IMG/VR virus record: IMGVR_UViG_3300010222_000002
Location: 1 to 64,000 of that record
Length of the DNA stretch: 64,000 nt
Direction: 5' to 3' (one strand)
Source of the DNA: a virus
A program made the translations under genes and the position numbers. This document shows positions 1,183 through 60,713 of the stretch, in pieces. The first letter of the stretch is position 1. Every line of letters starts with the position of its first letter. The notes beneath the pieces are model-generated. The model was given only the letters and a program-made list of their open reading frames with translations, did not search any database and was not told the origin of the DNA.

Positions 1183-4100
1183 TTACATGAAGGCAGACAG
1201 GCCGCTTTGACTCTGGCACTGTCCACGAAGCGCGGCCTCAGTCTCGACCCCGAAGGCGTCCAGAATATCTTCCATCGGATTCTTGAGACACTTTCGTTGC
1301 ATCTCACTGGCGTCTATCTTCAGGTCCACATCGATAAGGTCGCGGTGGGAGTCAAAGGCTATCACATCGACCTGCTCACCGTTGACCGTCTGACGAGGCT
1401 TGACCTTTGCTCTCTTTGGCTTGTCCCCCTTCTCGAATTTCACATCGAGAAGGTGGTTGGCAAACCACGCCGCCCGAGGCGCTTCACCCCGTGGGTGGTC
1501 GCCGGTCGAGGACCATGAGTAATAGTCATCTTGGTCTGATTTATCGGGATCTATCTTTTGCCCGAGGCCCTGCGGAATACCGAGGTAATCCCAGTCCGGG
1601 TCGGCGGGGTCGATTGACGACGATGCTTCGTAGACTGTCTCGACCACTGCGCCCTTATCGGCTCCACGGACTATCTGTTCGAGAACTTCTTCCTGAACCT
1701 CCTTCGTCATTAAGGAGAAGTTCGATTTCACGCACTGGAAGCCGGTCACGTCGAACTTACCCTCACCGCCGTTCACTGTTTCACTGAACTCATCGCCCTC
1801 GTCCCACATTTTGAGGTAGGCATAGTTCTTTTTCTTGTCTTCGCACATGAAGAAACGTTCAGCCCGCATCTCAACTTCAATCTCCCACCGATTGTCCTCA
1901 CGGGGGATGTGGAACTCGTCGCAGAGTTCGGGATAGACCTGACGTTCCAGCTCTTCGCACAGTTTCTCGGCATAGGCCAGCGTGTACTGCTGGTCCCAAT
2001 TGCCCGGAAACTCTACATAATTGCTGTCGGTGTCGCCGTAGACCACCTCTACGCCGTCAACAGCGTTCTCTGAGATGTACCCGGCGGTCCCTTTGATGAC
2101 TCGCTGGCCGGTAAGGGTGACAGCCGCCGCGTCGTGTGGGTTGTAGAGCGGCGAACGTGCCCACCCCGAATAACCGTAAAATGATTGACCTGTCCACGAC
2201 ATGATACCATCACGGCCACACAGCATCGTGTGGTTGTCCTCCACCGTGATGCAATACACTCCTTCGTTGGACCCGGATTCGCGGCGCTCCGACGAGCGGT
2301 TCATGCGGAAGTGGTTGTTTGCTTCGTTCCAACGTACTCGGTAGCCATTCCATGATTCTTCCTCGTGGTAGCGGACGTTCTGCCCGAACTCTACGGCGAG
2401 CCGCATGAAGTCGTCTCGTAGGTCCTCAGACTTCGTAGTGTAACGGTCCTGTCCTTCGGCTCCGTCTCCAGCGATAAGCGTGTTGAACAGGAGCCGCTTC
2501 TGCTCGGGACTGAGGCTCCACACGAACTCTGGAAGGCGCTTGTTCTCGGAGCCGGACCCGCACAGGTCTTCGAGCAGGTCGCCAAGGATGCGGCTGGTGA
2601 ACGACAACTGCATCTGGTCTTCATTGTAGTCCAACCCACACCGTTCGAGAACATCACGCACTGCTGGCCTGTCACCGGCTTCCCGTTGAGCTATTTGGAC
2701 TATCACACTGTATTCTTGCCGACCAACGCAACCTTCCGTAGCGTACCACGCCAGCAGTTCCACGAAGGCGTCACCGTCGTAGAACGTGGGGACGAACTTC
2801 CGGTTGCGAGCCGAGTGGACCTCCGTCGTTCGGTCTTCGCACATCTTCTCGATGACGTGTTGAGCATCGAGGTAGTCATCAGCGGAGATGAAGTACCCAC
2901 CTGTGTTGTCGTCGTACTCAGCCTCTACGTGGTCGGGAATGTTAGACTGGAACGTACGTCCGTGAACCTCTGGATAGACTCGAACTTCACCACCGCCAAT
3001 AATTTCTTCTTCAGCAATGCTGAACCAGTCCATTCCCGTCCCGTGGATGTCCGGGTTAGACCCGACAGCGGTGGGCATCTCATAGCCAGCCGACTTCGTA
3101 AGTTCTCCTGCCTCTACGAACTGGTATTTTTCTTCCTTGACATACCCATCGCGCTGTCTGACGACAGTTCGGTGATTCGGGGTAAGCGTCTGGCTGATGT
3201 TCGTAGTGTCTATCTCGATAAGGTCGCCGTCGTACTCCGGGTAGGAGAACGTTTCAGTCACTTCCTTGAGTTCTACTCGTCCGGTATCAGGGTCCAGCGA
3301 ATAGACTTTATCACCAACCTCCACGTCCTTGATGTTGACTACCCCATCGGCGGTCATCACTTCATGGTCGCCAGTAACACAGTTATATATTGTTTTTGTG
3401 ACATTATACGCCTCGGCGTACTCTTCCCACAGATCAGTGCCGTACTCGGCGGAGTTCCGTTGTTGCTTGAACTCGCGCTTGACTTCGTGGTACTCGTCAA
3501 CAAGCTCGCGGATGATGCCGTCCTTATCGGTACGGAACCGCTGACCGTTCTCGGCTTCTACGTAGTCGAACTTACCGTCGCCGCCGTCACGACGACCAAT
3601 TTCGTCTATCATCGCGTGCCACTCGGTCGTCCCCTGCTCGGCCTCTATCCGGGTGTCAGGCGAGGCGTTGAGCATCCACTGCGTCATTGGGTAGAGGCTG
3701 GCGAGGTCCACGCCGCAGACGTTTTCTTTGACCCCGGAGAACGATGGGAAGACGTATGCTCCTTCGTAGTTCACGCCGTCATCAGCGTTCGCCACGTAGG
3801 GATTATCGTAGGCCGTTATCATGGCGAGATCGTGTTCGTGGCACTTCCGGCGAACAGACATTTCGATGAACTCGTTGTTCTCGTGCGTCCGTCGCCAGTC
3901 CACGCCCACCATGTCCTTCAGCCGCTTCTTGAAGCCGAGGACGTTCTCTTTCTCGTTTATCTCGACGGTAAGCCGAGTGTCTTTGACGTTGTAGTTGATG
4001 AACTTCACCGGGTCCTGATCGTACATCTCAAAGTAGCCCATCTCCTGATGCTCGATTTTCGTGTCATCGAGTACGTCAGCGGCTACGTCGTCCAGCTTGA

Positions 4101-5124
4101 ACGACCGGGGTTGCGTAAACTTGGTGTCGCCCCAGCCGTCCATCAGGTCGTAGAGCGCCCGGCCAGTAATCTCGGGAATAAAGTCGTCGCCGTAGCCGTC
4201 TACTTCGACTTCTCCTTCTCGGGACAGTCGGGCAGGGGAAGCACCCACTGACTTCATCCGCTCGATGATGTGTGGCAGGTCGAAGCCGTCCGTACTGCTG
4301 TCACCCGAGTTCCAGCCAGCGATCAGGTCCGGGTTCTTGCCCTGTACCCACGACCCGAAGGCCACGAGCATCCGGCGCTCGTTGGGTTCGAACTTCAGAG
4401 CATCCGGTTCATGGAGGCCGAGGTCATCCAGCCCGAAGTCTTCATCTTCGTTTGCCATCTTCGCCCGCTGGACCGGCGAGAGGTCGAAGAACGACTCCAT
4501 GCTCTCGCCGTCGAGGTCGAGGAAGGCGGTGTACTCGTCATCGTAGGAATCGTGAACAACGATGCTCAGAATCCGGGCCTCACCGGGATCGGGGAAGCCA
4601 GCGCCCCGGTCGTCAGTCTCTATGTCCAGCGTGAGAACACGGGGGTCCACATCGGTCATCTCGACCGGCTCAAGTTCATCGCGGTCAGCGATGATGTGAT
4701 CGTCGCGGCGAGTTTCCGTTGGAACACGAACGCCGGTTCTGATTTTTTCGTCAACCCGGAACCGTTCGGTGAAGATGGTGTCAGCGCCCCACGTCTTGTC
4801 GAAGTATTTCCGAAGGACGGGAACGGAGTGGGGATACTCCGTGACGACCTTCACGAGGTCGGTGGGATTATCATCGAACCGCTCCGACAGCGGGTCTTCA
4901 TCTACCTCTTCGTACTCGATAAGGTCTTCGTGGTCCGACGGCTGGACGGTATCCCCTTCTTCTGCTCGGGTGAGGAAGTAGGGACTGAAACCAGTGACCG
5001 TAACCGTCCGAGCTTCGTGGTCCCGATTCCTGCCGTACAACCGAACGACAACGGAACTGAAATCGGTGTCTCCGGGGTACATCGTCTCGGTCGTGGTGAT
5101 GTAGAGTTCTTCTGTTTCTGTCAT
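1183..5124 (-). CDS. polB: family B DNA polymerase, interrupted by an intein
   Basis: Exo I LTLDIETDD, NYNVKDT, motif A DLASLYP, motif B KTIYN / SFYGY split by the intein, motif C VYGDTDS. The start is set at ATG 5122-5124 (MTETEELY..., ATGA overlap with the upstream ORF). The basic 29-aa extension to 5211 is not used. Confidence 0.93.
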   Translation of the reverse strand: MTETEELYITTTETMYPGDTDFSSVVVRLYGRNRDHEARTVTVTGFSPYFLTRAEEGDTVQPSDHEDLIEYEEVDEDPLSERFDDNPTDLVKVVTEYPHSVPVLRKYFDKTWGADTIFTERFRVDEKIRTGVRVPTETRRDDHIIADRDELEPVEMTDVDPRVLTLDIETDDRGAGFPDPGEARILSIVVHDSYDDEYTAFLDLDGESMESFFDLSPVQRAKMANEDEDFGLDDLGLHEPDALKFEPNERRMLVAFGSWVQGKNPDLIAGWNSGDSSTDGFDLPHIIERMKSVGASPARLSREGEVEVDGYGDDFIPEITGRALYDLMDGWGDTKFTQPRSFKLDDVAADVLDDTKIEHQEMGYFEMYDQDPVKFINYNVKDTRLTVEINEKENVLGFKKRLKDMVGVDWRRTHENNEFIEMSVRRKCHEHDLAMITAYDNPYVANADDGVNYEGAYVFPSFSGVKENVCGVDLASLYPMTQWMLNASPDTRIEAEQGTTEWHAMIDEIGRRDGGDGKFDYVEAENGQRFRTDKDGIIRELVDEYHEVKREFKQQRNSAEYGTDLWEEYAEAYNVTKTIYNCVTGDHEVMTADGVVNIKDVEVGDKVYSLDPDTGRVELKEVTETFSYPEYDGDLIEIDTTNISQTLTPNHRTVVRQRDGYVKEEKYQFVEAGELTKSAGYEMPTAVGSNPDIHGTGMDWFSIAEEEIIGGGEVRVYPEVHGRTFQSNIPDHVEAEYDDNTGGYFISADDYLDAQHVIEKMCEDRTTEVHSARNRKFVPTFYDGDAFVELLAWYATEGCVGRQEYSVIVQIAQREAGDRPAVRDVLERCGLDYNEDQMQLSFTSRILGDLLEDLCGSGSENKRLPEFVWSLSPEQKRLLFNTLIAGDGAEGQDRYTTKSEDLRDDFMRLAVEFGQNVRYHEEESWNGYRVRWNEANNHFRMNRSSERRESGSNEGVYCITVEDNHTMLCGRDGIMSWTGQSFYGYSGWARSPLYNPHDAAAVTLTGQRVIKGTAGYISENAVDGVEVVYGDTDSNYVEFPGNWDQQYTLAYAEKLCEELERQVYPELCDEFHIPREDNRWEIEVEMRAERFFMCEDKKKNYAYLKMWDEGDEFSETVNGGEGKFDVTGFQCVKSNFSLMTKEVQEEVLEQIVRGADKGAVVETVYEASSSIDPADPDWDYLGIPQGLGQKIDPDKSDQDDYYSWSSTGDHPRGEAPRAAWFANHLLDVKFEKGDKPKRAKVKPRQTVNGEQVDVIAFDSHRDLIDVDLKIDASEMQRKCLKNPMEDILDAFGVETEAALRGQCQSQSGLSAFM
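2185..3381 (-). mobile_element. intein (399 aa) with LAGLIDADG endonuclease domain, inserted in polB motif B
   Basis: It starts with Cys (CVTGDHEVMT). Block B is TLTPNHR. LAGLIDADG motifs are LLAWYATEGC and LIAGDGAEG. Block F is VYCITVEDNHTMLC. It ends ...SWTGQ, followed by Ser+1. Removing it restores K-T-I-Y-N-S-F-Y-G. Confidence 0.85.
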
Positions 5125-6105: not shown

Positions 6106-6273
6106 CTACCTGTCACCGTCAGTCTGTCGTCTAATTCTTTCTGCTACTGCTTTTCGTCGGTCGCGGGTCATCAGTGGGTCTGATACGTTCACCACGTCAG
6201 TTTCGAGAAGGGTCACGAGTTTTTCGATGGTGTCGGTACGAAGCTCTACGGTCTTTGTCTCAGGCATTGGCAT
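6106..6273 (-). CDS. small hypothetical protein (55 aa), possibly ribbon-helix-helix
   Basis: Hand-translated MPMPETKTVELRTDTIEKLVTLLETDVV...; ATGA overlap with the upstream stop at 6273. Confidence 0.4.
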   Translation of the reverse strand: MPMPETKTVELRTDTIEKLVTLLETDVVNVSDPLMTRDRRKAVAERIRRQTDGDR

Positions 6274-7703: not shown

Positions 7704-7893
7704 TGTCTAAGTCGGACTCCATTTCCTCGACGTGTTCCGTAATGTCCATTGCGTTTTCACCATCGAACTCTACGACCACACGCCCGCTTTCTTTCTTCTT
7801 CATGGCGGCTCTGAAGAGCAACTTTCTGAGGTTTTCCCGACCGAGAGCGTGGAAGATGAAGGCCCATTGTTTGTTTTGTTCGGTTTCGCTCAT
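7696..7893 (-). CDS. hypothetical protein (65 aa)
   Basis: Track ORF; 8-nt overlap with the downstream gene. Confidence 0.5.
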   Translation of the reverse strand: MSETEQNKQWAFIFHALGRENLRKLLFRAAMKKKESGRVVVEFDGENAMDITEHVEEMESDLDND

Positions 7894-8045
7894 CGTTTAT
7901 TCATCACTCTGGATAGCTTTCTCGACCGTTGACTCCGTGGTTCGAAGTCCGGGGTTTCTTCGAGAAGGGCGGCAGTCTCCGAAATCTTTTGTTCGACACG
8001 AACGGCGACGGTTTCGATTTCTTTTTCCAGATCATTGTTCGTCAT
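7890..8045 (-). CDS. small hypothetical protein (51 aa)
   Basis: Hand-translated MTNNDLEKEIETVAVRVEQKISETAALLEETPDFEP...; ATGA overlap with the next gene. Confidence 0.35.
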   Translation of the reverse strand: MTNNDLEKEIETVAVRVEQKISETAALLEETPDFEPRSQRSRKLSRVMNKR

Positions 8046-9409: not shown

Positions 9410-9807
9410 CAGTCAGTAACCTTGAACCCCGACTGTTCAGATTGGTTGACCAGCACAGAAACTTTGGAGCCATCGCCATCCTCGATGATAATCGGACTGT
9501 CCGAAATTGATGCACCACTATCGATTCTATACTCGATTGGGACTGCTATTTTTCCTTCGTTTCGCCATCGTGAACCGACCATCAACTCCCCGCAATCGAC
9601 ACAGTATTTCTCTTTCTGTCGGAGAGAGTCAAAGACGAGGAACCCTTCTTCAACTCTCGGAGATTCAACTTTTTCTACAGTTGAGTCTGTTTTTGACCAT
9701 TCAGTTTCGCTGTGGTCACATCTACTGTTGACTCTTTCTCCGTAAGTTGATTCTTTATCGACTAACGGTACCCCGCTTCGCCACGGGAGCCACTTATTCC
9801 AGTTCAT
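9409..9807 (-). CDS. hypothetical protein (132 aa)
   Basis: Track ORF trimmed to MNWNKWLPWRSG... (ATG 9805-9807); contains CVDCGE. Confidence 0.5.
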   Translation of the reverse strand: MNWNKWLPWRSGVPLVDKESTYGERVNSRCDHSETEWSKTDSTVEKVESPRVEEGFLVFDSLRQKEKYCVDCGELMVGSRWRNEGKIAVPIEYRIDSGASISDSPIIIEDGDGSKVSVLVNQSEQSGFKVTD

Positions 9808-10114
9808 TTTTGATTTCTCTCTTGGCTGTCTTTCGGTCTTTACCGCTCTGTTCGGCTTCGAGAAGGGCCTGCGCCTCTGCTCCAGAGTAGTCTTCAACGT
9901 GGACTTGCTCTTGAATCTCTCCGACTGTCAGCTTTTCTGGAGCGAACGGCGCGGCTGTCTCTTCTTCCCCACTCTCCCCCTTCTCGATGTCGATTCGCGT
10001 CAGAACACTGATGGTGTTATTGTTGACGCCCATGAAGGCGACAAATTCTCCATCAGGTTCTTCGAACGTTCTGCCGTGGTCATCGACTGTGCGTAGTGTT
10101 TCTTCTTTGAACAT
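9794..10114 (-). CDS. hypothetical protein (106 aa)
   Basis: Track ORF, acidic. Confidence 0.55.
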   Translation of the reverse strand: MFKEETLRTVDDHGRTFEEPDGEFVAFMGVNNNTISVLTRIDIEKGESGEEETAAPFAPEKLTVGEIQEQVHVEDYSGAEAQALLEAEQSGKDRKTAKREIKNELE

Positions 10115-11247: not shown

Positions 11248-12555
11248 TTATGATTGTTGAAAGTCAGTAGATTCTTCTTGATCGAAATTAACCGGATACA
11301 TCCACGTCATCGCTCGTTCGTCGCTGACGCCGTGAACCGTCGCGGCAGGTTCGGACCACTCGGCCAGCGACTCTTCGAAGTCAGACGGCGGGACGATAGC
11401 TCCCGACATAAGCACCGGGTTCGAGACGATGTTCTCAATGCGGAATTCGTGATAGTGGCCCCGATAAGCGATGTCGAAATTGTGCTGGTGAAGCCACTGA
11501 AGCCATCGTTTCTTCCCTGCCGACGTGCCGATGTGAATGAGACTATGCTGGCCGTGACGAAGGTGAGCGCGATGCTCACAGTCATTCAAGGTTTCTCCCC
11601 GGAGTGGGAAGTTGGTAAAGTTACCACCATCCGACCTAACGAATTTCACGTTGTCGTATCCTCGATCTCGGACACGCCGATCCAGCGTCATAAAGAACGC
11701 CGTGTCAACGTTATCGTCAGGCCCCATTCCGTCACCGCGAAGCTCACCGTGGTTCCCTTTCTGACACACGATCTGAACCGACTCGAATTCCGTCGAAGCT
11801 CGGTCGATGAACTCCATGTAGATGTCCGAAGCGACAGTCAGTTGCTCCGGCAGGGAAAGTTCTGTTTCCCACGGCTGATCGTCATGGATACCGATGCCGT
11901 GAAGGTGATCTCCCCCCATTACAATATGGAGCGTGTCGAATTCCACGCCAGCTTCTTCCTGTCGTTTCTTTAGCGAGAAGACTTTATCAGAGACGTTCCT
12001 GACGCGCTTGATACCGATTTCAGCACTGAAGGTATCGTTTCCGAACTCGTCAGTGTAGTTTGCTCCGATGTGGTCGTCGGAACGGTGGACGACCATATCT
12101 TCGTGGCTCTCTCGAACCGAAAGTCCATCCTCGGGAACGGCGGGAGCGCGACCGTTCAGATCGCGGTCGAGATACTGGATTAGCTCGTGGACTTTCTTTT
12201 TTGCATCCCGAGTGACCGATGCTTTGGATCGAAGCTCTCCTGTTGGTTCGTCGGGGTTGATCGGGTACTCGTTGGCGTCAGGCCGGTAGTAGAAGACCTT
12301 TGCGCCATCTTCTTCACGTTCACCGAGTGGGATTCCATCAACGTTCTGCAAATTGTTGATGTGATCCCGAGCGGTGGAACGACTGATTCCGAGTGAATCA
12401 GAAATCTTGCCGTAACTGGCTCCACCGTTCTGGAGAAGCGTGAATACTTGCTGGCGTTTCTGCGAGTTGATAGTGTGTTGTTTTGTCAAGTGAAATTTGG
12501 TCCCGTGAGGGATGACTACTTCTGGATGTCTTCGTTCCGATTGTAGACCGCGCAA
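11248..12555 (-). CDS. winged-HTH + calcineurin-like metallophosphoesterase (Mre11/SbcD-like fold)
   Basis: The HTH is GASYGKISDSLGISRSTARDHINNL. Phosphoesterase motifs are DDHIG, GGDHLHG, GNHG and GHYHEF. The start is uncertain: the ATG at 12555 overlaps the primase gene by 40 nt and gives a basic N-terminus, and a TTG at 12487-12489 is an alternative. Confidence 0.7.
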   Translation of the reverse strand: MRGLQSERRHPEVVIPHGTKFHLTKQHTINSQKRQQVFTLLQNGGASYGKISDSLGISRSTARDHINNLQNVDGIPLGEREEDGAKVFYYRPDANEYPINPDEPTGELRSKASVTRDAKKKVHELIQYLDRDLNGRAPAVPEDGLSVRESHEDMVVHRSDDHIGANYTDEFGNDTFSAEIGIKRVRNVSDKVFSLKKRQEEAGVEFDTLHIVMGGDHLHGIGIHDDQPWETELSLPEQLTVASDIYMEFIDRASTEFESVQIVCQKGNHGELRGDGMGPDDNVDTAFFMTLDRRVRDRGYDNVKFVRSDGGNFTNFPLRGETLNDCEHRAHLRHGQHSLIHIGTSAGKKRWLQWLHQHNFDIAYRGHYHEFRIENIVSNPVLMSGAIVPPSDFEESLAEWSEPAATVHGVSDERAMTWMYPVNFDQEESTDFQQS

Positions 12556-13721
12556 TCGGAGCCGAGACAGAACACTGATGCTCTCTCGGCTATCTCCTTA
12601 CAGTTGAATTCACTGTACTCCCGTCCGATGATTTCGTCTAACTGTTCGTTAGTAACCTCCTCCCGATAGCCCGGAATCTCTCTGAAGAATTCGTGGATTA
12701 CATCTCGTGGAACACCGATCTCAACGAGCCGACTGAGTATCGACATTTCCATAACGTGAGATGCGTTCCCGAATTCAAAGGCATCATCACTATTTCTGAA
12801 CTCCTCGATACACGGTTTATTCGAAGTTATGAACGGAATGTCTTCGAGTTCGATGTCATCATTCGCCCGTTCTTCGTACTGTTCGACAGCCGTAGGGTCA
12901 AATGTGGAACTGCGGTTATAGCTTTGATTTTTGTTGCTCTTTGCGCTCCTGATTGCCTGTACGACCTTATCACCGGCAGTGGTCGAAGGGACTCGTCGGT
13001 AGCCATCCTGCCATCGAGGTGCCCGAGTCAGGGAGTCGTATTCATCGACGCCAAGATCGGCCATCTCTTCCACGGTGATCTGCACACACCAACGTGTTCT
13101 ATCGTCGTAGGATGCTCCGTGGTGAATGGTGTTCGGATGGCGGGCCAGCCGTCCGAGATCAGAGGCATCAACGTCAACCCACCGGTCGATGCTGACACCG
13201 CCTGCTGTCTCGTTCAGCCACGCCATCACCCGTTTGCCGTAGGACTTCAGCCCGTTCTTGAATTGATGGAACGAACCGTTGTTCGTTGAAATCGATGGGA
13301 AATCAAGATATAGATGAAGACCCTTGTGACCGGAAAGCACGACGCGGAAGTGGTCTCCCTGTCCGGCTTCGAGAATGGCCGCCGCGATCATCCTCGACCG
13401 TGCCAACAATGCGCTCATCTCACGACGCCACGCATCGTAGTCGCCTTTGCCTTCGTCCGGTTGGTATTGGTTGCCCTCTACGTCCAAGTCGATGAAGATG
13501 CAGTCTACCTTCGGAATGTTACCGTCCCGGCTGTGGCCTCTCGGGAACGAATAGACTGAGTAGTAGCCGGGCATCTCACCGTGGATTGCTGTGTTCAATG
13601 CGTCACAGAATTCAGCCCGGTTGTTTCGATACGCCTGAAATTTCTCACTACTGGATGACTGTCGGGGATAGTCAGGAGCGAAGACGCCGCTCGCTTGCCA
13701 CAGCGCCTTCTCGGGATTCAT
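12516..13721 (-). CDS. archaeo-eukaryotic primase (AEP) with C-terminal 4-Cys domain
   Basis: Motif I is IFIDLDVE (DxD), motif II is LSGHKGLHLYL, and then ARHPNTIHHG follows. The C-terminal region PCIEEF...FNCKEI...FCLGSDC carries four cysteines. Confidence 0.8.
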   Translation of the reverse strand: MNPEKALWQASGVFAPDYPRQSSSSEKFQAYRNNRAEFCDALNTAIHGEMPGYYSVYSFPRGHSRDGNIPKVDCIFIDLDVEGNQYQPDEGKGDYDAWRREMSALLARSRMIAAAILEAGQGDHFRVVLSGHKGLHLYLDFPSISTNNGSFHQFKNGLKSYGKRVMAWLNETAGGVSIDRWVDVDASDLGRLARHPNTIHHGASYDDRTRWCVQITVEEMADLGVDEYDSLTRAPRWQDGYRRVPSTTAGDKVVQAIRSAKSNKNQSYNRSSTFDPTAVEQYEERANDDIELEDIPFITSNKPCIEEFRNSDDAFEFGNASHVMEMSILSRLVEIGVPRDVIHEFFREIPGYREEVTNEQLDEIIGREYSEFNCKEIAERASVFCLGSDCAVYNRNEDIQK

Positions 13722-15288: not shown

Positions 15289-16096
15289 TGTAGGTTGTGT
15301 CGGTTGGGATTTTTCGTTCTAATGCCGGTTCGGTGTCTGGCCCATCGGGGTAGAGCCAACTCCATAGCTTTTCGACTCCATGCTTCTGTCGGACGTAGAT
15401 ATACTGTTTTTCGTCTGTTTCAGTAACGTAACCGCCCGAGGGGAGCCACGAAAGTACCTTCTCAAACCGCTCTTTGTTTACACCTGTAATTTGGAAGGTA
15501 TCATAAGAAGCAAGATGACCGTCTCCGTCATACAGACCACGAACGAACGCGGCCCGAAGTCTGTCTGATTCTAACTCAGGAAGGGCGGGGGAGAACGTCT
15601 TGTCTCTGTCACAACCACAGTCCCGAAGGTCGTCAGCCATCTTTTCGCTGGTAATTGTAATGTCATGCGTGCCGTCTTTCTGCTCCTTAACTCCGTATTC
15701 CGCATCGACTGCTTTCTTGAACGCAACGACGTGTTCCCGGTCAATCAGACAGAGTGATACTATGTGAGAGTTAGAATTTCCACGGACGTAGACTGCCCCA
15801 TCAGCGTACAGCATACCGAGCCAGTACGCTTTTTCGGTATTGTCTATCTCGGAGAAGTAGGACTCATTGACAGGCAACTTTCCGTTTTTCCGTTTGTCAT
15901 CTACCCCCGCAAGCCGCTTTGCTCGCGTCCACGTTCCGAAGTGGTTTTCGAGCGTACTGGTAGAGGGGCCGTCCATCTCACCAAATTCGTCATAAGTTGG
16001 CGGTCTTCCAAGCTTTTCGGTTGCGTTACGAATTGACTGAAGTCTTTCTTCGTCATCATATCCGTAACAGTAGTCTGTTTTTCTTTCGTATGCCAT
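15278..16096 (-). CDS. free-standing LAGLIDADG homing endonuclease (two motifs) with N-terminal helical repeat
   Basis: AYWLGMLYADGAV and FVRGLYDGDGHL. The N-terminal GRPPTYDEF...STLENHFGTWTRAKRLAG repeat also occurs on the HNH protein. The start is set at ATG 16094-16096; the track's GTG start is part of the GTGACACAACC box. Confidence 0.8.
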   Translation of the reverse strand: MAYERKTDYCYGYDDEERLQSIRNATEKLGRPPTYDEFGEMDGPSTSTLENHFGTWTRAKRLAGVDDKRKNGKLPVNESYFSEIDNTEKAYWLGMLYADGAVYVRGNSNSHIVSLCLIDREHVVAFKKAVDAEYGVKEQKDGTHDITITSEKMADDLRDCGCDRDKTFSPALPELESDRLRAAFVRGLYDGDGHLASYDTFQITGVNKERFEKVLSWLPSGGYVTETDEKQYIYVRQKHGVEKLWSWLYPDGPDTEPALERKIPTDTTYNDH

Positions 16097-16216
16097 TGGT
16101 TGTGTCACGCCACTTCACGGGCTGACGCCGGGTCCGTTCCGGGGAGGGAACAGACCCAAAGGCGGCCCGCGAAGCGGAAGAAGGTAGTTAGTTTCCGCGC
16201 TGTTCAGCCTACTACG

Positions 16217-19210: not shown

Positions 19211-19212
19211 AG

Positions 19213-19283
19213 TGAGAACGGGTGGATTTGAACCACCGTTCTGGCGTCCCAAACGCCAAATGATACCACTACACTACGTTCCC
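19213..19283 (-). tRNA. tRNA-Pro (anticodon UGG)
   Basis: GGGAACG...TGGCG-TTTGGGA-CGCCA...GGTGG-TTCAAAT-CCACC-CGTTCTC-A on the minus strand. Confidence 0.85.
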
Positions 19284-47241: not shown

Positions 47242-48142
47242 ACTGGCCGTTATCATCCTTGACGCGCTGGACACGCAGTTTCTTCGGAATCAGGGGATGG
47301 CGAATATCCTTGAGAGATACAACGAGAACGGAGATATTTTTGGATGTTCTTCGTTCCCCCATACTGCGGTTTCTAACCCGAGAATTTGGGGTGGATACGA
47401 AAACCACGAGATGTTTTGGGTCGATGACGATGATGACGAGTGGGCTGACCCCGCAAACGAATTCGATAGAGGGGCCGCAGAAACGAAAGGCGATTTCCGG
47501 CTATGGGAACGGTCTGATTACGATACGTCTTTCGTATGGGACATAGCAGATGATGCTGGACTCAACGCTTCGGCACTTCAAATCCCAATTACCCTTCCAC
47601 CGTATTCCTTTAACGCAGAAGAAAAGTTAGACGATGCGTGGTTCCCGAACACACAAGAGCTAATTCAGGAACACACTGAGAAGAAGCCTGAAATTATCGA
47701 GCAACACGCTAAACGCGGAGACGATCTAATTTGCACATCTATCCAAGTGCCGGACAAATGGATTCACGGTCTTGCAGAGGGTAAAGTGACTAATTCGTTT
47801 GTCAAAAATCAGGCACAGTTTCTCGATCAGAGAATAGACGAAATGTTAGATTTCCTCGAATCTGAAGGCTATGGCTGGATGATTTTCGGGGATCACGGAA
47901 ATCCAGATAAGGGCACAATGCCGATGGCGGGTGCAAAACAAGTAATTACCCGACACCGCTCAGAATCAATTATTTTCTCTAATCTCGCAGAGTTCCCGAG
48001 TTACAGTGGGGAAATGTACGAGTTTATCTGTGATTTCCACGACCTTGATCCTGATACCGACCCATACGAATCGACTGACGCCCATCGAGAAGGGGGGGCG
48101 GATGAAGTAACGCAACGGCTCGAAGACTTGGGGTACAGATAG
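47234..48142 (+). CDS. alkaline-phosphatase-superfamily enzyme (type I phosphodiesterase / nucleotide pyrophosphatase-like)
   Basis: Trimmed to MNKLAVIILDALD. SSFPHTAVSNPRIWGG is a candidate Thr-nucleophile region, and MIFGDHGN is the metal-binding DHG motif. Confidence 0.6.
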   Translation: MNKLAVIILDALDTQFLRNQGMANILERYNENGDIFGCSSFPHTAVSNPRIWGGYENHEMFWVDDDDDEWADPANEFDRGAAETKGDFRLWERSDYDTSFVWDIADDAGLNASALQIPITLPPYSFNAEEKLDDAWFPNTQELIQEHTEKKPEIIEQHAKRGDDLICTSIQVPDKWIHGLAEGKVTNSFVKNQAQFLDQRIDEMLDFLESEGYGWMIFGDHGNPDKGTMPMAGAKQVITRHRSESIIFSNLAEFPSYSGEMYEFICDFHDLDPDTDPYESTDAHREGGADEVTQRLEDLGYR

Positions 48143-48143
48143 A

Positions 48144-50240
48144 ATGGTTTCTTACAATCTTTGGATGGCAGACGCATCCGGGGTTTTTGAAGTAGACCCG
48201 GACAATAGTTCTTCTGTTCCCTGTGTCGTTTCCAGTTTTACAGATCCAAATGCTACTCCGAGCCACGTAAGCGACATTTCCAAGGATGAAAGCGGATCGC
48301 TGTGGATTTCATACGATAACGCTCCATCTACATTTGTTGTTCAGCCCAGTGACGGTTCAGTAACCTCTCAGTATGCAACTGGGTCGATGACAGCGACAAC
48401 GATTTACCCATCTGAAACTGCATTTGACACGTTCCACCCCGGAAATTCTGTTTTTGTTAAAAAAAGAGATTCGACTTTTTCTTCAACAGGTTCAGAATTC
48501 GAGATTTCTGTCGATGACGGATTAGGTAGGTCTTCTGATGGTCTTATTTGGGTAGCTGACAGCTACGAGCTTAAAGGCTATCCGTCTGATTATTCGGGTA
48601 TTATTCAGAAAAATTTTGACCATGCCGCTTCTACTCATGGCGGAATAACTGTTGACTCCGACAGTTGTATATGGGGAGCAGATTTCAATAAATCTGGCAG
48701 TGGGTTTGTTTACAAGTATGACCGATCTGGCTCGATCCACCAAAGCTTCACAGCAAGCCACGGATACCCCTATGGGTTAGCTACAACTGAAGGACCACAC
48801 GGTTCAGCAAATACGACAATAAGCGTTTCACTGTCAGCAGGAACAACGGTCGGACAGAAGCCGGTCCCATCAATCACTCAAAATGGCACGTTTTCGATGC
48901 CAGTGGAAACGGGTTCTGTTCAAGAACCCGCGCCGAATATTGGTATTTTTGTCGAGGTCGCCACACCTGAAGGGCAGGCCACAGTTCAAGAGCCAACGGC
49001 TGATATTTCACAGCCTCCAAGTGTTGGATTCGTCCAGCATACGATTGCGGTTCAGGAACCGTCGATTTCGGCCTTTGCGAACATCGAGACTTCAATTTCG
49101 GCAAAAGGTCTTGGACTCGAAGAAACAGATCCATCGGTTACTGCACCGCCGCAAGTTTCGGTTGGGTTTGAAAGCGTAAGTGCGACCGAATCTGAACCGA
49201 GTGTTGGTGCGCCTCCAAAAGTGGGACCAGCAGAAGAAACTATCACTGTTCAGCAACCCACCTCAACGGTAACTGCTCCCGGTACTGTTTCTGCTGGTGG
49301 AAAAACAGTAACAGTAAGTGGCCTAACCGCGACAGTTTCCGCGCCGAGTTCTATTTCGCCGAACGCTGATACAATTACAAGCGTACAGCCGTCAAGTGAT
49401 ATTTCAGCAGGACCGTTGGTTACTGTACGCGCTGATAAGGTTGTTACGTCTGAACCAACACCGACAACGGTTGCTCTCGGGACGTTTGTTCCGAATCCCG
49501 GTGTCGTGAACGCGAAAGAACCGTCGATCACCGCCAAGGCACCGCCGGTCACGGAGTTAGCTGTTGAAGTACTTACAAGCTCTGAGCCGAATACAGCATA
49601 TTCAGCACCGGGAACTGTTACGCCGAAGGCTGGTGTACTTTCTACTCAGGAGCCTGTAACCGATATTTCATCGAAGTTCGGGATTATGATTCCGAAAGAG
49701 CCGCTGAAGCTACAGAATACAGATATTGTAGCTCAGGCACCCGGAACAATTGTTCTCGGTGAGGATACTGTTACAACCAACGAACCAGATCCGAAGATAG
49801 ACGCCATAATTAGTCTGAGTGTCAACTCTGAAACGCTCACCGCGTTTGCCCCGACCGCGAGCCTGACGGCTCCGGGTTCGGTAAATGTAGCCAACAAGAG
49901 CCTGAGTATCACAGAACCGACACCGAGTACATCTGCACCCGGAGTTGTTTCAGATGACAGCGAGACGCTTGCCCTTCTCGATGTTGAGCCGTCAGTCTTG
50001 GCACCATCGAGTCTGAATGTTTCAACTGGTGTATTGAATCTTGAAGAACTAAACCTTTCAGCGACGAAACCGCTCAATCTGAGTGTAGATACGCTCACAC
50101 TGCTTGTCCAAGAACCCGGCGTTGAAATCGGGACATTTGTTTCATTCGGACTGTCGATTGGTAAATCCACTTCGTATGGGAGAGCTGGTGACGTGAGCTA
50201 CGGTGAAACTGGAGACATCGAATACGAAAACAATGACTAA
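48144..50240 (+). CDS. beta-propeller-like N-terminal domain + about 18-19 tandem 22-residue repeats (putative fibre/adhesin)
   Basis: The N-terminal domain has G-x-L/I-W-I/V-x-D blades (ESGSLWISYD, SDGLIWVADS, DSCIWGADF). From about aa 260 to 669 there are repeats of the form x-E-P-x5-A-P-G-x-V-x6-L/V-x-T. Confidence 0.7.
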   Translation: MVSYNLWMADASGVFEVDPDNSSSVPCVVSSFTDPNATPSHVSDISKDESGSLWISYDNAPSTFVVQPSDGSVTSQYATGSMTATTIYPSETAFDTFHPGNSVFVKKRDSTFSSTGSEFEISVDDGLGRSSDGLIWVADSYELKGYPSDYSGIIQKNFDHAASTHGGITVDSDSCIWGADFNKSGSGFVYKYDRSGSIHQSFTASHGYPYGLATTEGPHGSANTTISVSLSAGTTVGQKPVPSITQNGTFSMPVETGSVQEPAPNIGIFVEVATPEGQATVQEPTADISQPPSVGFVQHTIAVQEPSISAFANIETSISAKGLGLEETDPSVTAPPQVSVGFESVSATESEPSVGAPPKVGPAEETITVQQPTSTVTAPGTVSAGGKTVTVSGLTATVSAPSSISPNADTITSVQPSSDISAGPLVTVRADKVVTSEPTPTTVALGTFVPNPGVVNAKEPSITAKAPPVTELAVEVLTSSEPNTAYSAPGTVTPKAGVLSTQEPVTDISSKFGIMIPKEPLKLQNTDIVAQAPGTIVLGEDTVTTNEPDPKIDAIISLSVNSETLTAFAPTASLTAPGSVNVANKSLSITEPTPSTSAPGVVSDDSETLALLDVEPSVLAPSSLNVSTGVLNLEELNLSATKPLNLSVDTLTLLVQEPGVEIGTFVSFGLSIGKSTSYGRAGDVSYGETGDIEYENND

Positions 50241-50535: not shown

Positions 50536-52278
50536 ATGGAAAAACTCGCTTCAGCTATCGCAGAAAACGATACACGCGACACAGAAGCCCTTCTCGAACG
50601 CTGGCGCGGGTCGCCTGAGAAAATCTCTCAGGACGTATTCCGAACACGGAATATGGAGACTGGCGAGATGGAAGACTTGGAACTCTTCTATCCCTATCAG
50701 CCAAAACTTCTTCACGCTTATTTCTACGGCGATGCTACAATCGTCAACGTCTACAAAGGAAGGCGAATTGGTGTTTCCTTCATCTTTTGTGTTGCGCTGG
50801 CGATAGATGCTTTTACAACGCCTGATGCGAATTTTGCAATCGTCTCACGGACAAAGGGACAGTCGGAAGAACGGATTCAGGACATTCGGACGCTCTTGAA
50901 GGATGCAAAATTTGTTGATGAACCTGTCGAGGACTGGCTGAAGAAAGATAACAACGGAAAGCTGATTTTTCCGAATGACGCGACTATCCGGGCTTTTTCG
51001 GGTGATCCGAAGTCAGCCCGTGGGATGGACTCGGCGAAGACCGTCTTTGTAGACGAAATGGCGTGGCTTGAAGACCAGAAAGCGACGATGGCGGCGTTCA
51101 TGCCGTTCATTAACCTTGGGAGCCACCGTCAGATGTTGCAGGTTTCGACGCCGAGAGCCAGTAATGACACGTTCCTCGAAACGAACGAGCGTGGGTCAGA
51201 AAATGGTAAGAATGGCGTCATCTCGGTGAAACAACCGAGTTTCAAAAATCCCGAAAACATCGACATCAACAAGCCGCTCTACAATCAGGATGTTGAGCCG
51301 GTCCGACCTGATATGGACATCGAGTCCGTGGAAGTAGAACGGGCACAAGACCCGCAAGGATTCGCACAAGAGTATCTGTGCAGACCAATTTCCGATGAAT
51401 ACCGCTTCTTGACGAAAGAAGGAATCCGAGATGCAATGCAGAAGGGCGCGGCTGATATTACCGAGAGTGGTGATTTAGTCGGGAAATACGTCGGCTGGTC
51501 GCCTGCTACACACGCTCGGGAAGGGGGGGAGATGGTAATGGGTGTAGACATCGGAATCGATTCAGACGATACTGCAATCGCAGTGTTTGAACACGCTGGC
51601 AGTCACAGATACCTTAGATTCCACACGATACTTGATCCACAGGACTTCGCGGCAGTTGGGATCAACAGTCACCGTACTGGCGACCCGTCAAAAGTGGCTC
51701 GATACATTGCGTCAGTGGATCGAAATATGGGCGTGGATCGAGTCTTCTTAGACAAAACTGGCCCCGGAAAGGGATTCCAGAAAGAAGTCGAGCAACGACT
51801 TGGAAACAAAGCAACTGGGTTCAACTTTACTGACAAGGACGAGATTGAGCGGATGATGGGCGACTTCAACTTCGCCCTGCACAACGATCTGCTCACATTG
51901 GTTCCCGATGATACAATCGAGAACCAGCTTGAGGCGGTCGTCAAGGAACAACGGCACGAAACTTCCAAGCCACGGTTTTCGGGGAAGAAACACGCGCCGA
52001 ACGGAAAAGACGACCTTGCAATGGCCCTCGTTCTCGGTGCTTATCCACCGAATTTCGACGCTGAACGCGAGACGACACCACATCAGCGGAAGAACGTTTC
52101 CGGCCACGTCGATGAGCCTGTAGAAGAGATAGAAGGCTCAGGGCGTCAGGTCGTAGATTCGATGATACAGTACAGCGGTTCGCGGTTCGATGACGATTCA
52201 CGTACTGACTCGACTAATCCATTCATATCACCCAATACGGGTCCAGATAGGCGATACAACCGACGACACTCAAGATAA
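50536..52278 (+). CDS. terL: terminase large subunit
   Basis: Deviant Walker A is YKGRRIGVS and Walker B is TVFVDEMAW. The C-terminal RNase-H-like nuclease has MGVDIGIDSDDTAIAV and GKDDLAMAL. It is followed by the portal gene. Confidence 0.85.
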   Translation: MEKLASAIAENDTRDTEALLERWRGSPEKISQDVFRTRNMETGEMEDLELFYPYQPKLLHAYFYGDATIVNVYKGRRIGVSFIFCVALAIDAFTTPDANFAIVSRTKGQSEERIQDIRTLLKDAKFVDEPVEDWLKKDNNGKLIFPNDATIRAFSGDPKSARGMDSAKTVFVDEMAWLEDQKATMAAFMPFINLGSHRQMLQVSTPRASNDTFLETNERGSENGKNGVISVKQPSFKNPENIDINKPLYNQDVEPVRPDMDIESVEVERAQDPQGFAQEYLCRPISDEYRFLTKEGIRDAMQKGAADITESGDLVGKYVGWSPATHAREGGEMVMGVDIGIDSDDTAIAVFEHAGSHRYLRFHTILDPQDFAAVGINSHRTGDPSKVARYIASVDRNMGVDRVFLDKTGPGKGFQKEVEQRLGNKATGFNFTDKDEIERMMGDFNFALHNDLLTLVPDDTIENQLEAVVKEQRHETSKPRFSGKKHAPNGKDDLAMALVLGAYPPNFDAERETTPHQRKNVSGHVDEPVEEIEGSGRQVVDSMIQYSGSRFDDDSRTDSTNPFISPNTGPDRRYNRRHSR

Positions 52279-53786
52279 TGGCTGAACAAAAACGAAATTT
52301 CGTAGAACCTGATGTTCCTGAAGAGGATGCAGATTTCTATACTGAATCCCCAAAAGGAGTAATTCGGAGTACCAGTGGCGGTTCTTCATCTGTTGGTGGA
52401 GATCGGGCCGCTAATGCTCCAGAAGAGACGATTCAGGAGCATAGAGACATTGCATATACGGACCCTCACGTTAAGGAAGCTGTCTTAACCCTTCTCGATT
52501 GGGTCGTCGGAGATGGATTCAACATTGCCCCACGAACGTTCGAGTCAGCGATGGAATCTGGAGTGGCAGGAGACGCCGCTAATACGGCGTCACCAGATTC
52601 TTCTGCTTCCGAGGGGAGTGATACAAAAATCCAGAAACTTCGTCGCCTGCTCAAAAACTCGGACTTCTGGACGGTCTTCACGGACTGGGTGAAGTACGCG
52701 GCCATCGACGGCCATGCGTTTATGGAGTTGGTTGTCGAAGACGAACAATTCAAGCCAAAACTCCTTCCGACGAAGAAAATGAAGCGGAAGGAAGACGAGT
52801 TTGGGAACATCGAGTTCTACAAGCTCGAAACTCCAGAAGGGGGTGGCAGTGGTGGTGGCGCTACAGGCGATACCGATATTCAGTACGAACCGCACGAGGT
52901 CGCAGAGTTAACATTTTTCAAACAACCGACTGAAGACTTCGGACGGTCGCTGATCGAACCTGTCGCAGAGCAAGCTGATATGCTCCGCGATATGGAGATC
53001 GACTACGCCCGCTTTATTGCAACAAAAGCGTACCCGCCTATCCTCTGGAAGCTCGGTGACGAGGACAATAACTGGACTGAAGACCAGATTTCGGCGTGGA
53101 TGGACAACGTGGAAAGCATCGAACCTGATACGATGCTTGCCGCACCCCATGACGTTGATACTGATGTTGTGGGAACTACTTCCACATCAAGTACAGCCGG
53201 GGCAATGCGCCTTGAGGATACTTTTGAACACTTCGAAGATAGGGTCGTCACTGGTCTTGGTGTTCCTCGCGTTCTAATGAATATGGACGGAGGGGGTCAG
53301 GGAGAAGCAACTGCTCTGATGCCATCGTTCAAACGCCGAGTAAGCAGGCTTCAGGCCCGAGTGAAAACGGCTGTCGAACAACAGATTCTCAAAAGCCTAC
53401 TCGTTAAGAGCGGTGGGCTGGAAGAATTCTCCGACATCCTTCCCGAATTCCAATTTGGTGAACACAGTTCGGCAGAGAAAAGGTTAGAATTGGATAAACT
53501 TCTGAACCTCTTCAATAACGGCCTGCTCACACCTGAAGCGTTTGCAGAACGCGCTGGCCTCGATCCAGATGAAGTACCCGACTTCTGGAACAACGGTGAA
53601 CATCTCGCAAATCTACGCGCACTTTCTCAGACTGGCGATGATATTCAGAATCCAGATGGCGGAAGACCAACTGATACCGGGGGTGGGTCTGAATCTGCTG
53701 GCGGTGAGGTGACTTCTCGACAAGACCCCGGTGAGGATTCATCTTCTGGTCGGAATAAGAAATCTGTCACCGAAGAAGAGTCGTAA
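52278..53786 (+). CDS. portal protein
   Basis: 502 aa, directly after terL (TAATG junction), with an acidic Gly-rich C-terminal tail. Assigned from position and size. Confidence 0.7.
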   Translation: MAEQKRNFVEPDVPEEDADFYTESPKGVIRSTSGGSSSVGGDRAANAPEETIQEHRDIAYTDPHVKEAVLTLLDWVVGDGFNIAPRTFESAMESGVAGDAANTASPDSSASEGSDTKIQKLRRLLKNSDFWTVFTDWVKYAAIDGHAFMELVVEDEQFKPKLLPTKKMKRKEDEFGNIEFYKLETPEGGGSGGGATGDTDIQYEPHEVAELTFFKQPTEDFGRSLIEPVAEQADMLRDMEIDYARFIATKAYPPILWKLGDEDNNWTEDQISAWMDNVESIEPDTMLAAPHDVDTDVVGTTSTSSTAGAMRLEDTFEHFEDRVVTGLGVPRVLMNMDGGGQGEATALMPSFKRRVSRLQARVKTAVEQQILKSLLVKSGGLEEFSDILPEFQFGEHSSAEKRLELDKLLNLFNNGLLTPEAFAERAGLDPDEVPDFWNNGEHLANLRALSQTGDDIQNPDGGRPTDTGGGSESAGGEVTSRQDPGEDSSSGRNKKSVTEEES

Positions 53787-57659: not shown

Positions 57660-58265
57660 ATGGGTAATATTGATATAAAAATCGACCTTCGGAAAGAGGA
57701 TTTGGTTCAACAGGCTCTTCGAGACGGACTTCGAGAAGGGTTAGAAGAATCCGGTAACTGGATGCTCGATGAGGGTGAAGATAAGGCAAAAGATGCAATC
57801 ATCGGTGCTGGTCGTATTTGGCGTCGATCTCTAAAAGAAGGATTCCACACTGAAGAAAACGAGTTTAGCCGGACAAGTCGCTGGAACGGTCAGATACGGA
57901 ACGAAGCTCCACACGCTCGAATCGTCCAAAATGGACTGAAACCCGGTAACTCTCCGTCTGTGCAAGATATTCTCCCGTGGGTTGATGACAAACTGACTCC
58001 GAACGAACGAGCGCGAGTCAAAGCAGAGAACACCGACCTCAGTGATTGGGAGAGTGATGAATTGATTGCGTTGGCCGAAAGATACGGAAAACCAACCCTC
58101 ATCACAGCGTTTGCTGTGAAGGGAAAACTGGAGAACAAAGGCTATCCCGGCATCGATTTCTTGGAAATAGCAGAGACATATCTGGAACAGATTTCCCGAG
58201 CCGTAGTAAAGCAGAAGATCGAGAAGAAGATGAACCAGCATTTGCGGGCCGCTGGTCTACAGTAA
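57660..58265 (+). CDS. head/tail completion protein candidate (201 aa)
   Basis: Position. Confidence 0.45.
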   Translation: MGNIDIKIDLRKEDLVQQALRDGLREGLEESGNWMLDEGEDKAKDAIIGAGRIWRRSLKEGFHTEENEFSRTSRWNGQIRNEAPHARIVQNGLKPGNSPSVQDILPWVDDKLTPNERARVKAENTDLSDWESDELIALAERYGKPTLITAFAVKGKLENKGYPGIDFLEIAETYLEQISRAVVKQKIEKKMNQHLRAAGLQ

Positions 58266-60141: not shown

Positions 60142-60654
60142 ATGTCACGAAATGGCACTCCAGATCGTATCGAATCCGCCGCAAACATCACTCTCGTCGT
60201 TATGCGGGGCGCTGAACAGCAGATTAGTAATGCCGAAGGGAGTCTCGATGACGCTGATTTCAGTGCTGGCGACATTGAAATCCCCATTTCACGCCTCGAC
60301 ACCACAAAGGAAATCGAGATTTCCGAGATTCGAGAGTCGTCGCTGAAGGCCAGCGGCTACTCGATCACCTCGATTTCTTATTCGGGGAAGATGACATTCA
60401 AAGGGTCGCGCTACACGAAAAACAGTCCTGACAGCGACGATTCGGCTGAACCGATTACAAACTTCCTCTACTACGATAACGGCGTTCCGCGCCCGTGTTC
60501 GATTAATATCAACCACGACCTGAACGGGGAAACTGACGAGTATCTTCACGTTCTCGCGTCCTCGGAGAGTTACGAGGTTCGCAACGAGAGCGAAACCGAA
60601 ACTGCGTTCGATTGGGTGGCAATGGACCGCGCTTCGGACCAGCCGGATAACTAA
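60142..60654 (+). CDS. tail tube protein
   Basis: 170 aa, directly after the sheath. An AAGACTCA motif lies 29 nt upstream of the ATG. Confidence 0.6.
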   Translation: MSRNGTPDRIESAANITLVVMRGAEQQISNAEGSLDDADFSAGDIEIPISRLDTTKEIEISEIRESSLKASGYSITSISYSGKMTFKGSRYTKNSPDSDDSAEPITNFLYYDNGVPRPCSININHDLNGETDEYLHVLASSESYEVRNESETETAFDWVAMDRASDQPDN

Positions 60655-60713
60655 GATCCACACTCCGCCCTTCTCGAAGATTTCTTGCGATTTTCACCGA
60701 GACAAACTAACTT

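Follow-up and report, generated by a model that had tools for sequence, protein, structure and literature searches.

A selected, lineage-specific DNA word in a Hafunaviridae-like haloarchaeal virus and its relatives

Selected, hyper-abundant DNA words are known from several systems. Chi sites and the DNA uptake sequences and uptake signal sequences (DUS/USS) are short, lineage-specific, dense by selection or drive, and largely intragenic, occurring on the order of once per 1-5 kb. HIP1 (GCGATCGC) of cyanobacteria is hyper-abundant both inside open reading frames (ORFs) and in the gaps that separate them, uses all usable frames, is selected, varies among lineages, and has an unresolved function (PMC5861425, PMC4390886). 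In Cluster A mycobacteriophages, the stoperators (L5 repressor gp71) are asymmetric and about 13 bp long; a temperate genome of roughly 50 kb has more than 20 of them, at promoters and elsewhere, and they are lineage-variable (PMC9283540, PMC6550527). The intergenic repeats (IRs) of class I and class II in the haloarchaeal virus HF2 are conserved, AT-rich, promoter-bearing repeats at fixed positions, reported as intergenic only (PMC8707807). Here we describe the decamer CCCTTCTCGA, a word of this known kind, in a 64-kb stretch of viral DNA (positions 1 to 64,000 of IMG/VR record IMGVR_UViG_3300010222_000002; hereafter, the window), together with analogous words in related viruses. What is new is the carrier, an archaeal virus, and a word that is asymmetric, fills about half of its synonymous opportunities, and changes between relatives with terminases about 75% identical.

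Each of these systems resembles the window word in the features listed above, and each differs from it in others. Stoperators lie in short intergenic gaps, are strictly oriented, and have a cognate repressor, whereas 13 of the 20 copies of the window word are intragenic by way of synonymous codons, there is no orientation bias, searches with Pfam, PHROG, and blastp gave no candidate repressor, and the host is an archaeon with promoters based on a B recognition element (BRE) and a TATA box. Because the word fails in two defining features of stoperators (orientation and intergenic location), we do not assign it to that family. HIP1 is palindromic, chromosomal, and associated with cognate methyltransferases; in contrast, the window word is asymmetric and viral, with no methyltransferase partner among the ORFs scanned. 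Chi is polar with replication, but the window word shows no polarity. DUS/USS belong to a host genome with competence machinery, whereas no copy of the window word turned up in a small sample (32 kb) of candidate-host DNA. The HF2 IRs come from the same virus family as the window, and five window copies with TATA-like boxes share up to 21 nt (copies at 21504 and 40650) and are IR-promoter-like; however, only 7 of the 20 window copies are intergenic, the flanks of the genic copies are unrelated, and the word of HF2 itself (CCTCGATG) differs from the quoted IR motifs. For HF1/HF2 relatives, palindrome avoidance and intergenic promoter repeats have been described (PMC7230728, PMC8707807), and in a family-wide survey, only methyltransferases were linked to short motifs, GATC among them (PMC8651126). 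In the literature searched, we found no published description of these words (searching with the sequences gave primer lists only), in agreement with an earlier note on this DNA that knew of no described equivalent in haloarchaeal viruses.

By exact search, the window contains CCCTTCTCGA 20 times, with 11 copies on the plus strand and 9 on the minus. Dinucleotide-preserving shuffles contained a mean of 0.38 copies with a maximum of 3, and the analytic Markov expectations for orders 1-5 were 0.30, 0.34, 0.47, 0.71, and 1.55; thus, the higher-order background that the earlier note had named as a possible explanation does not account for the count. The word ranks first among the 10-mers of the window, and the 8-, 9-, 11-, and 12-mers that occur often are sub- or superstrings of it. 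Based on the earlier note, there were 19 copies; all 19 coordinates are correct, and one copy had been overlooked (46410-46419, minus strand). The next base is A or T (A in 11 copies, T in 9, G or C in none). The missing G is explained by the total avoidance of CTCGAG in this genome, and the missing C is of marginal significance (about 0.012). Allowing up to one mismatch, CCCTTCTCGAW matched 36 times against 3.8 expected. The 9/10 matches listed previously exist, although most of their coordinates were 1-4 nt off; the true starts are 1445, 19124, 26429, 31220, 35700, 44266, 54896, 61837, and 62740. An extended intergenic consensus proposed for the bases before the word is approximate only, as the preceding sequences are CTCCACA, CTCCG, CTCACC, CTCCACC, and CTCCG. 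Two close inverted pairs (1427/1445 and 21451/21504) are both present, and the former could have arisen by chance: 49 sites have no more than one mismatch, and this number should yield about one pair so close together. Over the whole window, CTAG (0 vs. 107 expected), CTCGAG (0 vs. 36), and GTCGAC (0 vs. 23) are absent, and GATC, CATG, and TTCGAA occur at roughly half of expectation or less; this depletion looks like the restriction-site avoidance reported for HF1-group viruses.

We called ORFs in the window with our own heuristic, which yielded 93 ORFs (86% coding). Relative to these, seven copies of the word are in sense orientation and encode x-L-L-D/E, three are antisense in (F/I)-E-K-G, three are antisense in R-E-G, and seven are outside ORFs and tRNAs. 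When synonymous codons were shuffled within genes, these three frames held 0.4, 0.9, and 0.1 copies, respectively. We also calculated a coding expectation: at every coding position, we took the chance that the word arises under the encoded protein and the codon usage of the genome, and we summed these values; under this null, which takes no account of codon context, 0.71 coding copies were expected and 13 were observed (P~1e-12), with no other 10-mer near this value. At positions where the protein sequence permits the word, it is present in 13 of 25 cases. Nine of 17 LL[DE] tripeptides are spelled CTTCTCGA(A/T) (CTTCTCGAW; 0.6 expected), 5 of 10 REG tripeptides are spelled CGAGAAGGG, and 3 of 7 EKG tripeptides are spelled GAGAAGGGG, and none of the three kinds of tripeptide is in excess over amino-acid composition. 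Several of the 9/10 copies match the word as closely as the adjacent codon permits, most clearly at 1445 (His codon) and 62740 (Gly codon). A conserved HLLD in the family B DNA polymerase (polB; alignment column 1301) is spelled CAC CTT CTC GAT in the window only; the polB loci L138 and L141 and that of HSTV-2 (L142) spell it with other codons.

Non-coding DNA (8,991 bases) contains 7 copies against 0.04-0.09 expected, and the density of copies is three times as high there (0.78 per kb) as in coding DNA (0.24 per kb). Because the word is enriched in both coding and non-coding DNA, the signal acts on duplex DNA and not on proteins. The earlier note had reported the same frames and had argued that the word is not a protein motif, and both statements hold: the copies use three frames on both strands, the tripeptides are not enriched, and codon or dipeptide bias does not account for the count. 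These results show that selection acts on the DNA itself, with synonymous codons chosen to carry the word at about half of permissive positions, and they caution against treating synonymous sites in these viral genomes as neutral.

The gene content of the window identifies it as DNA of a tailed haloarchaeal virus, a Hafunaviridae-like myovirus, with genes for a family B DNA polymerase with an intein, a tyrosine integrase, a T4-type large terminase, a small terminase, an HK97-like capsid protein, and five tRNAs. The window is colinear with HSTV-2 in gene order, and its large terminase has 50-53% identity to those of Hafunaviridae isolates (HRTV-11, HSTV-2, HF1/HF2). We found no near-identical relatives, as the best large terminase identity was 77% in IMG/VR and 74% in metagenomes and an exact-protein look-up was empty; accordingly, no relative was close enough for the window's own word to be tested for site-by-site conservation.

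The exact decamer is almost absent from relatives, an outcome that the earlier note had set against a genuine signal. This absence does not overturn the finding, because every relative has its own analogous word. In HSTV-2, GCCTCATCGG(GT) occurs in 22 copies, 14 of them coding against 0.95 expected, and 12 of 47 CCTCATCG cores are non-coding; HCTV-6 has the same word in 14 copies in 46.7 kb. The HF2 word CCTCGATG occurs in 78 copies, of which 73 are coding against 14.3 expected (P 1e-27), and Serpecor1 has 29 copies of it in 22.5 kb. Metagenomic contigs carry CCCTCATCG(A), CCTTATCG(A/G), CCTCATCGG(T), CCTCAATG, or GCTCATCGC in 8-22 copies per 12-45 kb, with -log10P of 7.6-14.6 where computed. 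Overall, HSTV-2, HCTV-6, HF2, Serpecor1, and at least eight metagenomic relatives have outlier words with -log10P of 7.6-27, whereas the controls (50 kb of HVTV-1 of the Druskaviridae, three unrelated polB-bearing viral contigs, and the distant polB loci L147, L149, and L151) had no comparable outlier (-log10P 4-7). L151 seemed to share the window core CTTCTCG, but we did not count it, as its copies are mostly in one antisense frame (E-K) with variable flanks (-log10P 5.6). Scanning a viral contig collection with CTCCN{1,3}CCCTTCTCGA gave single chance matches in unrelated contigs only.

Most of these words have a common skeleton, CCT-YM-TCG-R or CCTC-R-ATG, from which GCTCATCGC of locus L182 differs at one base. 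In both gene orientations, the words usually have the phase xxC-NNN-NNN-Gxx, encoding Leu-Leu/Ile one way and Asp/Glu-Glu/Lys the other way, and they are therefore cheap for an acidic proteome to carry. Words are different even where the terminase large subunits of two viruses have about 75% identity. Together, these comparisons show that lineage-specific words are a family-wide habit.

Some positions of the words are conserved across lineages. The small terminase gene has the lineage's own word 20-55 nt upstream of its start codon in eight of nine genomes, as an exact copy or with one mismatch; these copies are on the coding strand, and an AT-rich, TATA-like stretch begins within 1-4 nt after the word. 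In the window, this copy is at 42847-42856 (plus strand), 54 nt upstream of the small terminase gene (42910-43716, plus strand; phrog_9231, E 1e-58). The position is thus conserved while the sequence co-varies with the lineage.

Two further copies form a 63-bp near-palindrome (21451-21513) between a divergent HNH gene (20624-21169, minus strand) and an ORF at 21605-22120 (plus strand). The exact copies at 21451-21460 (plus strand) and 21504-21513 (minus strand) face each other, and each is followed by a TATA-like box on its own strand (TGTTAAACA and AGCTAAACA, respectively). The orthologous hub in HSTV-2 has that virus's own word at its center and flanking repeats. In HF2, a one-mismatch copy of its own word lies within the hub region in which bidirectional promoters and 12-bp repeats were mapped experimentally (PMC8707807). 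Another hub in the window, at 40528-40740, is non-coding and repeat-rich: four 25-nt direct repeats of GTAGTTCTA units (40528-40628) are followed by an exact copy at 40650-40659 (plus strand) and then by AGCTAAACAGT, such that 21 nt are identical to the 21504 copy, and inverted TAGAATTAGAAC units, read by eye, occupy roughly 40690-40730. This iteron-like array is possibly an origin or else a complex promoter region. At five of the seven non-coding copies in the window, the word occupies the BRE position relative to a TATA-like box; no box of this kind accompanies the genic copies. The promoter assignments in the window were made by inspection of the sequence only. In sequence, the BRE-TATA-like arrangement at these five copies and at the small-terminase upstream copies of relatives fits the layout of an archaeal core promoter, in which the element directly precedes a TATA box some 25-30 nt from the start of the transcript or gene.

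Overall, the copies are evenly dispersed. The coefficient of variation of spacing was 0.97 for the decamer, 0.71 for its 8-mer core, and 0.73 for HSTV-2, and the last two values are slightly more even than random (p about 0.016); we therefore rejected the idea that the word is confined to origin or promoter clusters. There was no strand polarity, either overall or between genome halves. An origin as a mobile element, miniature inverted-repeat transposable element, or tandem repeat was also rejected, since the flanks are not conserved and just 10-11 nt are common outside the hubs. Conservation of individual sites between genomes, of the type studied for HIP1, was testable for the pair HF2 and Serpecor1 only. 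Over 22.5 kb aligned at 82% identity, 13 of 24 HF2 sites and 13 of 26 Serpecor1 sites were conserved, compared with 35% of all 8-mers (pooled 26/50, p=0.012). About half of the sites are private to each of these two viruses; site number is kept while individual sites turn over.

The integrase gene (22622-23764) adjoins a 3' end of tRNA-Gly(GCC) (GAGTTCAAATCTCGGCCAGCGCAC) that is duplicated about 160 nt apart (23877-23900 and 24041-24064), and this duplication is a probable attP. A 27-nt match to the tRNA-Gly 3' end led to exact matches in metagenome-assembled genomes (MAGs) of Haloarculaceae or Halovenus, which are possible hosts. In 32 kb of flanking DNA from four contigs of these candidate-host MAGs (61-68% GC), a small sample from hosts that are unproven, we found no decamers and one 8-mer core. 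HSTV-2 and HCTV-6 have one common word, although their hosts are Halorubrum and Haloarcula, respectively. Both tests are weak, but the shared word and the lack of decamers in the 32 kb together favor a reader specified by the virus.

The reading that we prefer, tentatively and with less than even confidence, is that CCCTTCTCGA(A/T) is a binding word for a virus-encoded DNA-binding protein that acts genome-wide as an operator or roadblock. Among its suggestions, the earlier note had listed dense sites bound by a nucleoid, partition, or transcription factor; binding of this kind, by a DNA-binding protein or a transcription factor, remains the best, if tentative, reading. The reader, most probably a sequence-specific protein that the virus encodes, would recognize the word as double-stranded DNA in both orientations, and we propose that it binds as a monomer because the word is asymmetric. 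At the hubs, the bound protein would serve as an operator at the BRE/TATA position; the dispersed copies would provide extra binding or roadblock sites that place the whole genome under one regulator, with both strands silenced in the temperate state or with temporal control as the outcome. Regulatory (immunity) specificity would then follow from changes in the word from one lineage to another, and the function would be comparable to that of the operator/stoperator system of Cluster A mycobacteriophages. By gene content, the family is temperate, with an integrase adjoining an attP-like tRNA end (PMC8651126).

Several results weigh against a regulator of this kind. No repressor-like match emerged when about 50 proteins of the window were scanned with Pfam and PHROG, and the helix-turn-helix, winged-helix, and zinc-finger proteins annotated in HF2 and HCTV-6 have no window homologue based on blastp. 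The copies lack an orientation bias with respect to transcription (about 11 sense and 8 antisense), in contrast to the strict orientation of stoperators, and the majority are within genes, not in short gaps between them. That half of the synonymous opportunities are filled suggests that the benefit grows with the number of copies, as is more usual for Chi, uptake, or packaging signals than for operators. In HF2, the hub copy is downstream of one mapped start site and not at its BRE (PMC8707807), and the genome retains 78 copies despite lytic growth on the laboratory host.

A broader possibility, which we consider doubtful, is that Hafunaviridae-type viruses carry such words as a "self-identity barcode". 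A reader protein would co-evolve with a word of 8-12 nt in every permissive synonymous or non-coding position, and some viral machinery, be it for regulation, packaging, replication, or protection, would use it to tell its own DNA from that of the host and of co-infecting relatives. A switch of word (TC, CA, or TA at the center) would create incompatibility groups, and foreign words in exchanged modules (e.g., CCTTATCG in the polB and HSP90-like modules of the window) would record past recombination. There are also rival explanations. A Chi-like signal would be read by a virus-encoded nuclease/helicase and would, at any break, slow degradation or boost recombination-dependent replication, with more copies giving better protection. 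Such a signal would agree with the apparently selected copy number, the even coverage (spacing coefficient of variation of 0.71-0.73 for the 8-mer cores), the turnover of individual sites at a kept number, and the asymmetry and lineage specificity of the word, which it shares with Chi among bacteria; in addition, the window encodes a PD-(D/E)XK nuclease and an ERCC4 nuclease (with respect to a helicase-nuclease of the RecBCD/AddAB type, these stand-alone enzymes were all that was seen), and the annotations of relatives include Cas4, an Mre11-like phosphoesterase, and a Rad3 helicase. However, the absence of strand polarity overall or by genome half disfavors the polar Chi site suggested in the earlier note, we know of no Chi-type system in archaea, and the conserved placement by TATA-like boxes and in promoter hubs is left unexplained; we regard this account as unlikely. 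A host uptake signal, also suggested there, is not favored, given that the word is absent from the 32 kb of candidate-host DNA. Alternatively, the small terminase could recognize the word as a packaging self-mark, such that viral DNA is chosen over host DNA, with the copy before the terminase gene as a primary pac-like site. Recognition sites of the pac/cos type are classically situated upstream of the small terminase gene (lambda, P22, SPP1), which is where eight of nine genomes have their own word; the small terminase is universal in the family and has a Cys/His cluster, and the selection on copy number is like that of uptake sequences. Dispersed pac sites have no known precedent, however, and a small-terminase identity matrix shows no clear link to word class (the L007 protein is no closer to those of L010 and L005 than to that of the window). 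Genomes of the HF2 type have defined 306-bp terminal repeats, which imply one specific end-forming site (PMC8707807), and we consider packaging quite unlikely.

Preferred start sites for a virus-encoded PriS-PriL primase, with the pyrimidine-rich strand CCCTTCTC as template, would account for the even coverage of both strands, for a hub copy (40650) between iteron-like repeats, and for the 21451/21504 inverted pair, which could launch bidirectional synthesis. A fused primase is encoded by the family itself: the product of 12516-13721 in the window matches phrog_9660 and, weakly, a primase PHROG, and its HCTV-6 homologue is annotated as DNA primase. This explanation is decidedly unlikely, as known primase recognition sites are about 3 nt long and not 8-11, the 1-3 kb spacing does not match short archaeal Okazaki fragments, and the copy upstream of the terminase gene is unexplained. 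The earlier note also raised a target for DNA modification, with over-representation tied to methylation. Asymmetric 7- to 8-mers do resemble type IIG/IIL sites, and large N6-methylase or type IIG genes are present in HF2 and HCTV-6. HIP1 offers a precedent as a hyper-abundant word within and between ORFs that is methyltransferase-associated (PMC4390886, PMC5861425). Nevertheless, the scanned window proteins have no methyltransferase domain, HSTV-2 uses the same word as HCTV-6 without that virus's type IIG gene, and Serpecor1, which was reported without a methylase gene (PMC7230728), keeps HF2's word at the density given above; a modification target is therefore weakened and, in our view, very unlikely. 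Finally, codon-context bias combined with strong palindrome avoidance could funnel sequence into a few words and leave a functionless compositional by-product. The total absence of CTAG, CTCGAG, and GTCGAC and the depletion of GATC and CATG are in line with this view, and the codon-usage null is blind to codon context, with a control genome still at a -log10P of about 7. The by-product explanation is nonetheless extremely unlikely: a Markov model of order 5, which captures the avoidance of words up to 6 nt, expects just 1.55 copies, a single duplex word is reached from three frames on two strands, enrichment is highest in non-coding DNA, own words occur at orthologous positions across lineages, and site conservation between HF2 and Serpecor1 is above background (26/50 vs. 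35%, p=0.012).

If the words are a genome-wide signal, then a family that includes the long-studied isolates HF1/HF2 and HSTV-2 hides a signal that shapes codon choice at roughly half of permissive positions, is different in close relatives, and labels the main promoter hubs. Such a signal would offer a concrete way to learn how the genomes of haloarchaeal viruses are controlled or labeled and would allow metagenomic contigs and exchanged modules to be assigned to "word lineages" from sequence alone. The cultivable systems HF2 and HSTV-2 make it directly testable.

The window also contains a second word, CCTTATCG, in 16 copies against 2.6 expected, none of them non-coding. These copies are restricted to the left arm (110-36793), with clusters at 1332-4917 and 32577-36793; five are in polB and five are at 32.5-36.8 kb. 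The window proteins closest to those of CCTTATCG-type contigs are polB and a 946-aa protein encoded at 33518-36358, and one CCTTATCG site in polB is at the orthologous codon in L139 and L143 too. The copies of this word in the window are probably leftovers of module exchange from a lineage that uses it. In a separate comparison, the contig with L007 and L139 had 66% identity to the window in the small terminase and 70% in polB but just 49% in the large terminase; based on this contrast, the small and large terminase subunits have different histories.

Among the genic copies of the decamer, that at 1427-1436 (plus strand) is antisense in polB (1183-5124), in the F-E-K-G frame. With an 8-nt spacer, it forms an inverted pair with a 9/10 copy, ACCTTCTCGA, at 1445-1454 (minus strand), which is in sense orientation in polB and encodes H-L-L-D. 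The polB gene has a Hint/intein insertion at about residues 577-980, and the presence of this insertion varies among related polB genes. Other sense copies on the minus strand are at 6203-6212 (T-L-L-E, ORF 6106-6273), 7960-7969 (A-L-L-E, ORF 7890-8045), 9858-9867 (A-L-L-E, ORF 9794-10114), and 22818-22827 (T-L-L-D, integrase gene). The ORF at 9794-10114 also contains an antisense copy at 9978-9987 (plus strand, I-E-K-G), and a further antisense copy with I-E-K-G is at 27722-27731 (plus strand, ORF 27685-27873). The antisense copies in the R-E-G frame are on the minus strand at 46410-46419 (the copy missed earlier; ORF 45904-47241), 48085-48094 (ORF 47225-48142), and 57731-57740 (ORF 57660-58265). 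Sense copies on the plus strand are at 49972-49981 (A-L-L-D, ORF 48144-50240), 50588-50597 (A-L-L-E, near the start of the large terminase gene at 50536-52278), and 52489-52498 (T-L-L-D, ORF 52278-53786), and a 9/10 copy, GCCTTCTCGA, at 62740-62749 (plus strand) encodes G-L-L-E. Outside genes and the hubs, copies are at 18117-18126 (minus strand, between an ORF end at 17814 and an ORF start at 18191), at 19334-19343 (plus strand, between tRNA-Pro at 19212-19283 and tRNA-Thr at 19502-19575), and at 60668-60677 (plus strand), in a 59-nt gap between ORFs 60142-60654 and 60714-61214, where the word is followed by AGATTTC, as at 42847.

Genes of the window are directed leftward over 1 to 40.3 kb and rightward over 42.9 to 64 kb. 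Two ORFs encode homing-type endonucleases and are located in the replication module: one at 15278-16108, with a homing-endonuclease-associated HNH_repeat and a LAGLIDADG-like domain, and the HNH gene at 20624-21169 mentioned above, identified by an HNH endonuclease PHROG match. The ORF at 48144-50240, immediately upstream of the large terminase gene, encodes a 698-aa protein with no Pfam or PHROG match and has an unusually low GC content at third codon positions (0.40). The interval 39050-40300 is a 1.2-kb, GC-rich, and visibly self-complementary region without an Rfam match, in which only one ORF was called, and weakly (39769-39933, 54 aa, score 3.5); it corresponds in position to a long non-coding region of HSTV-2 (65632-67146). 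At gathering thresholds, Rfam identified only tRNAs in the window. A pair of 67-nt repeats with 79% identity on the minus strand (29199-29265 and 32095-32161) resembles the 3' half of a tRNA (TGGAGGGGAATCGAACCCCTC...) and was not called by ARAGORN or Rfam, and palindromic units of the form AAGACTT...AAGTCTT occur at 29236, 32132, 36703, and 37881.

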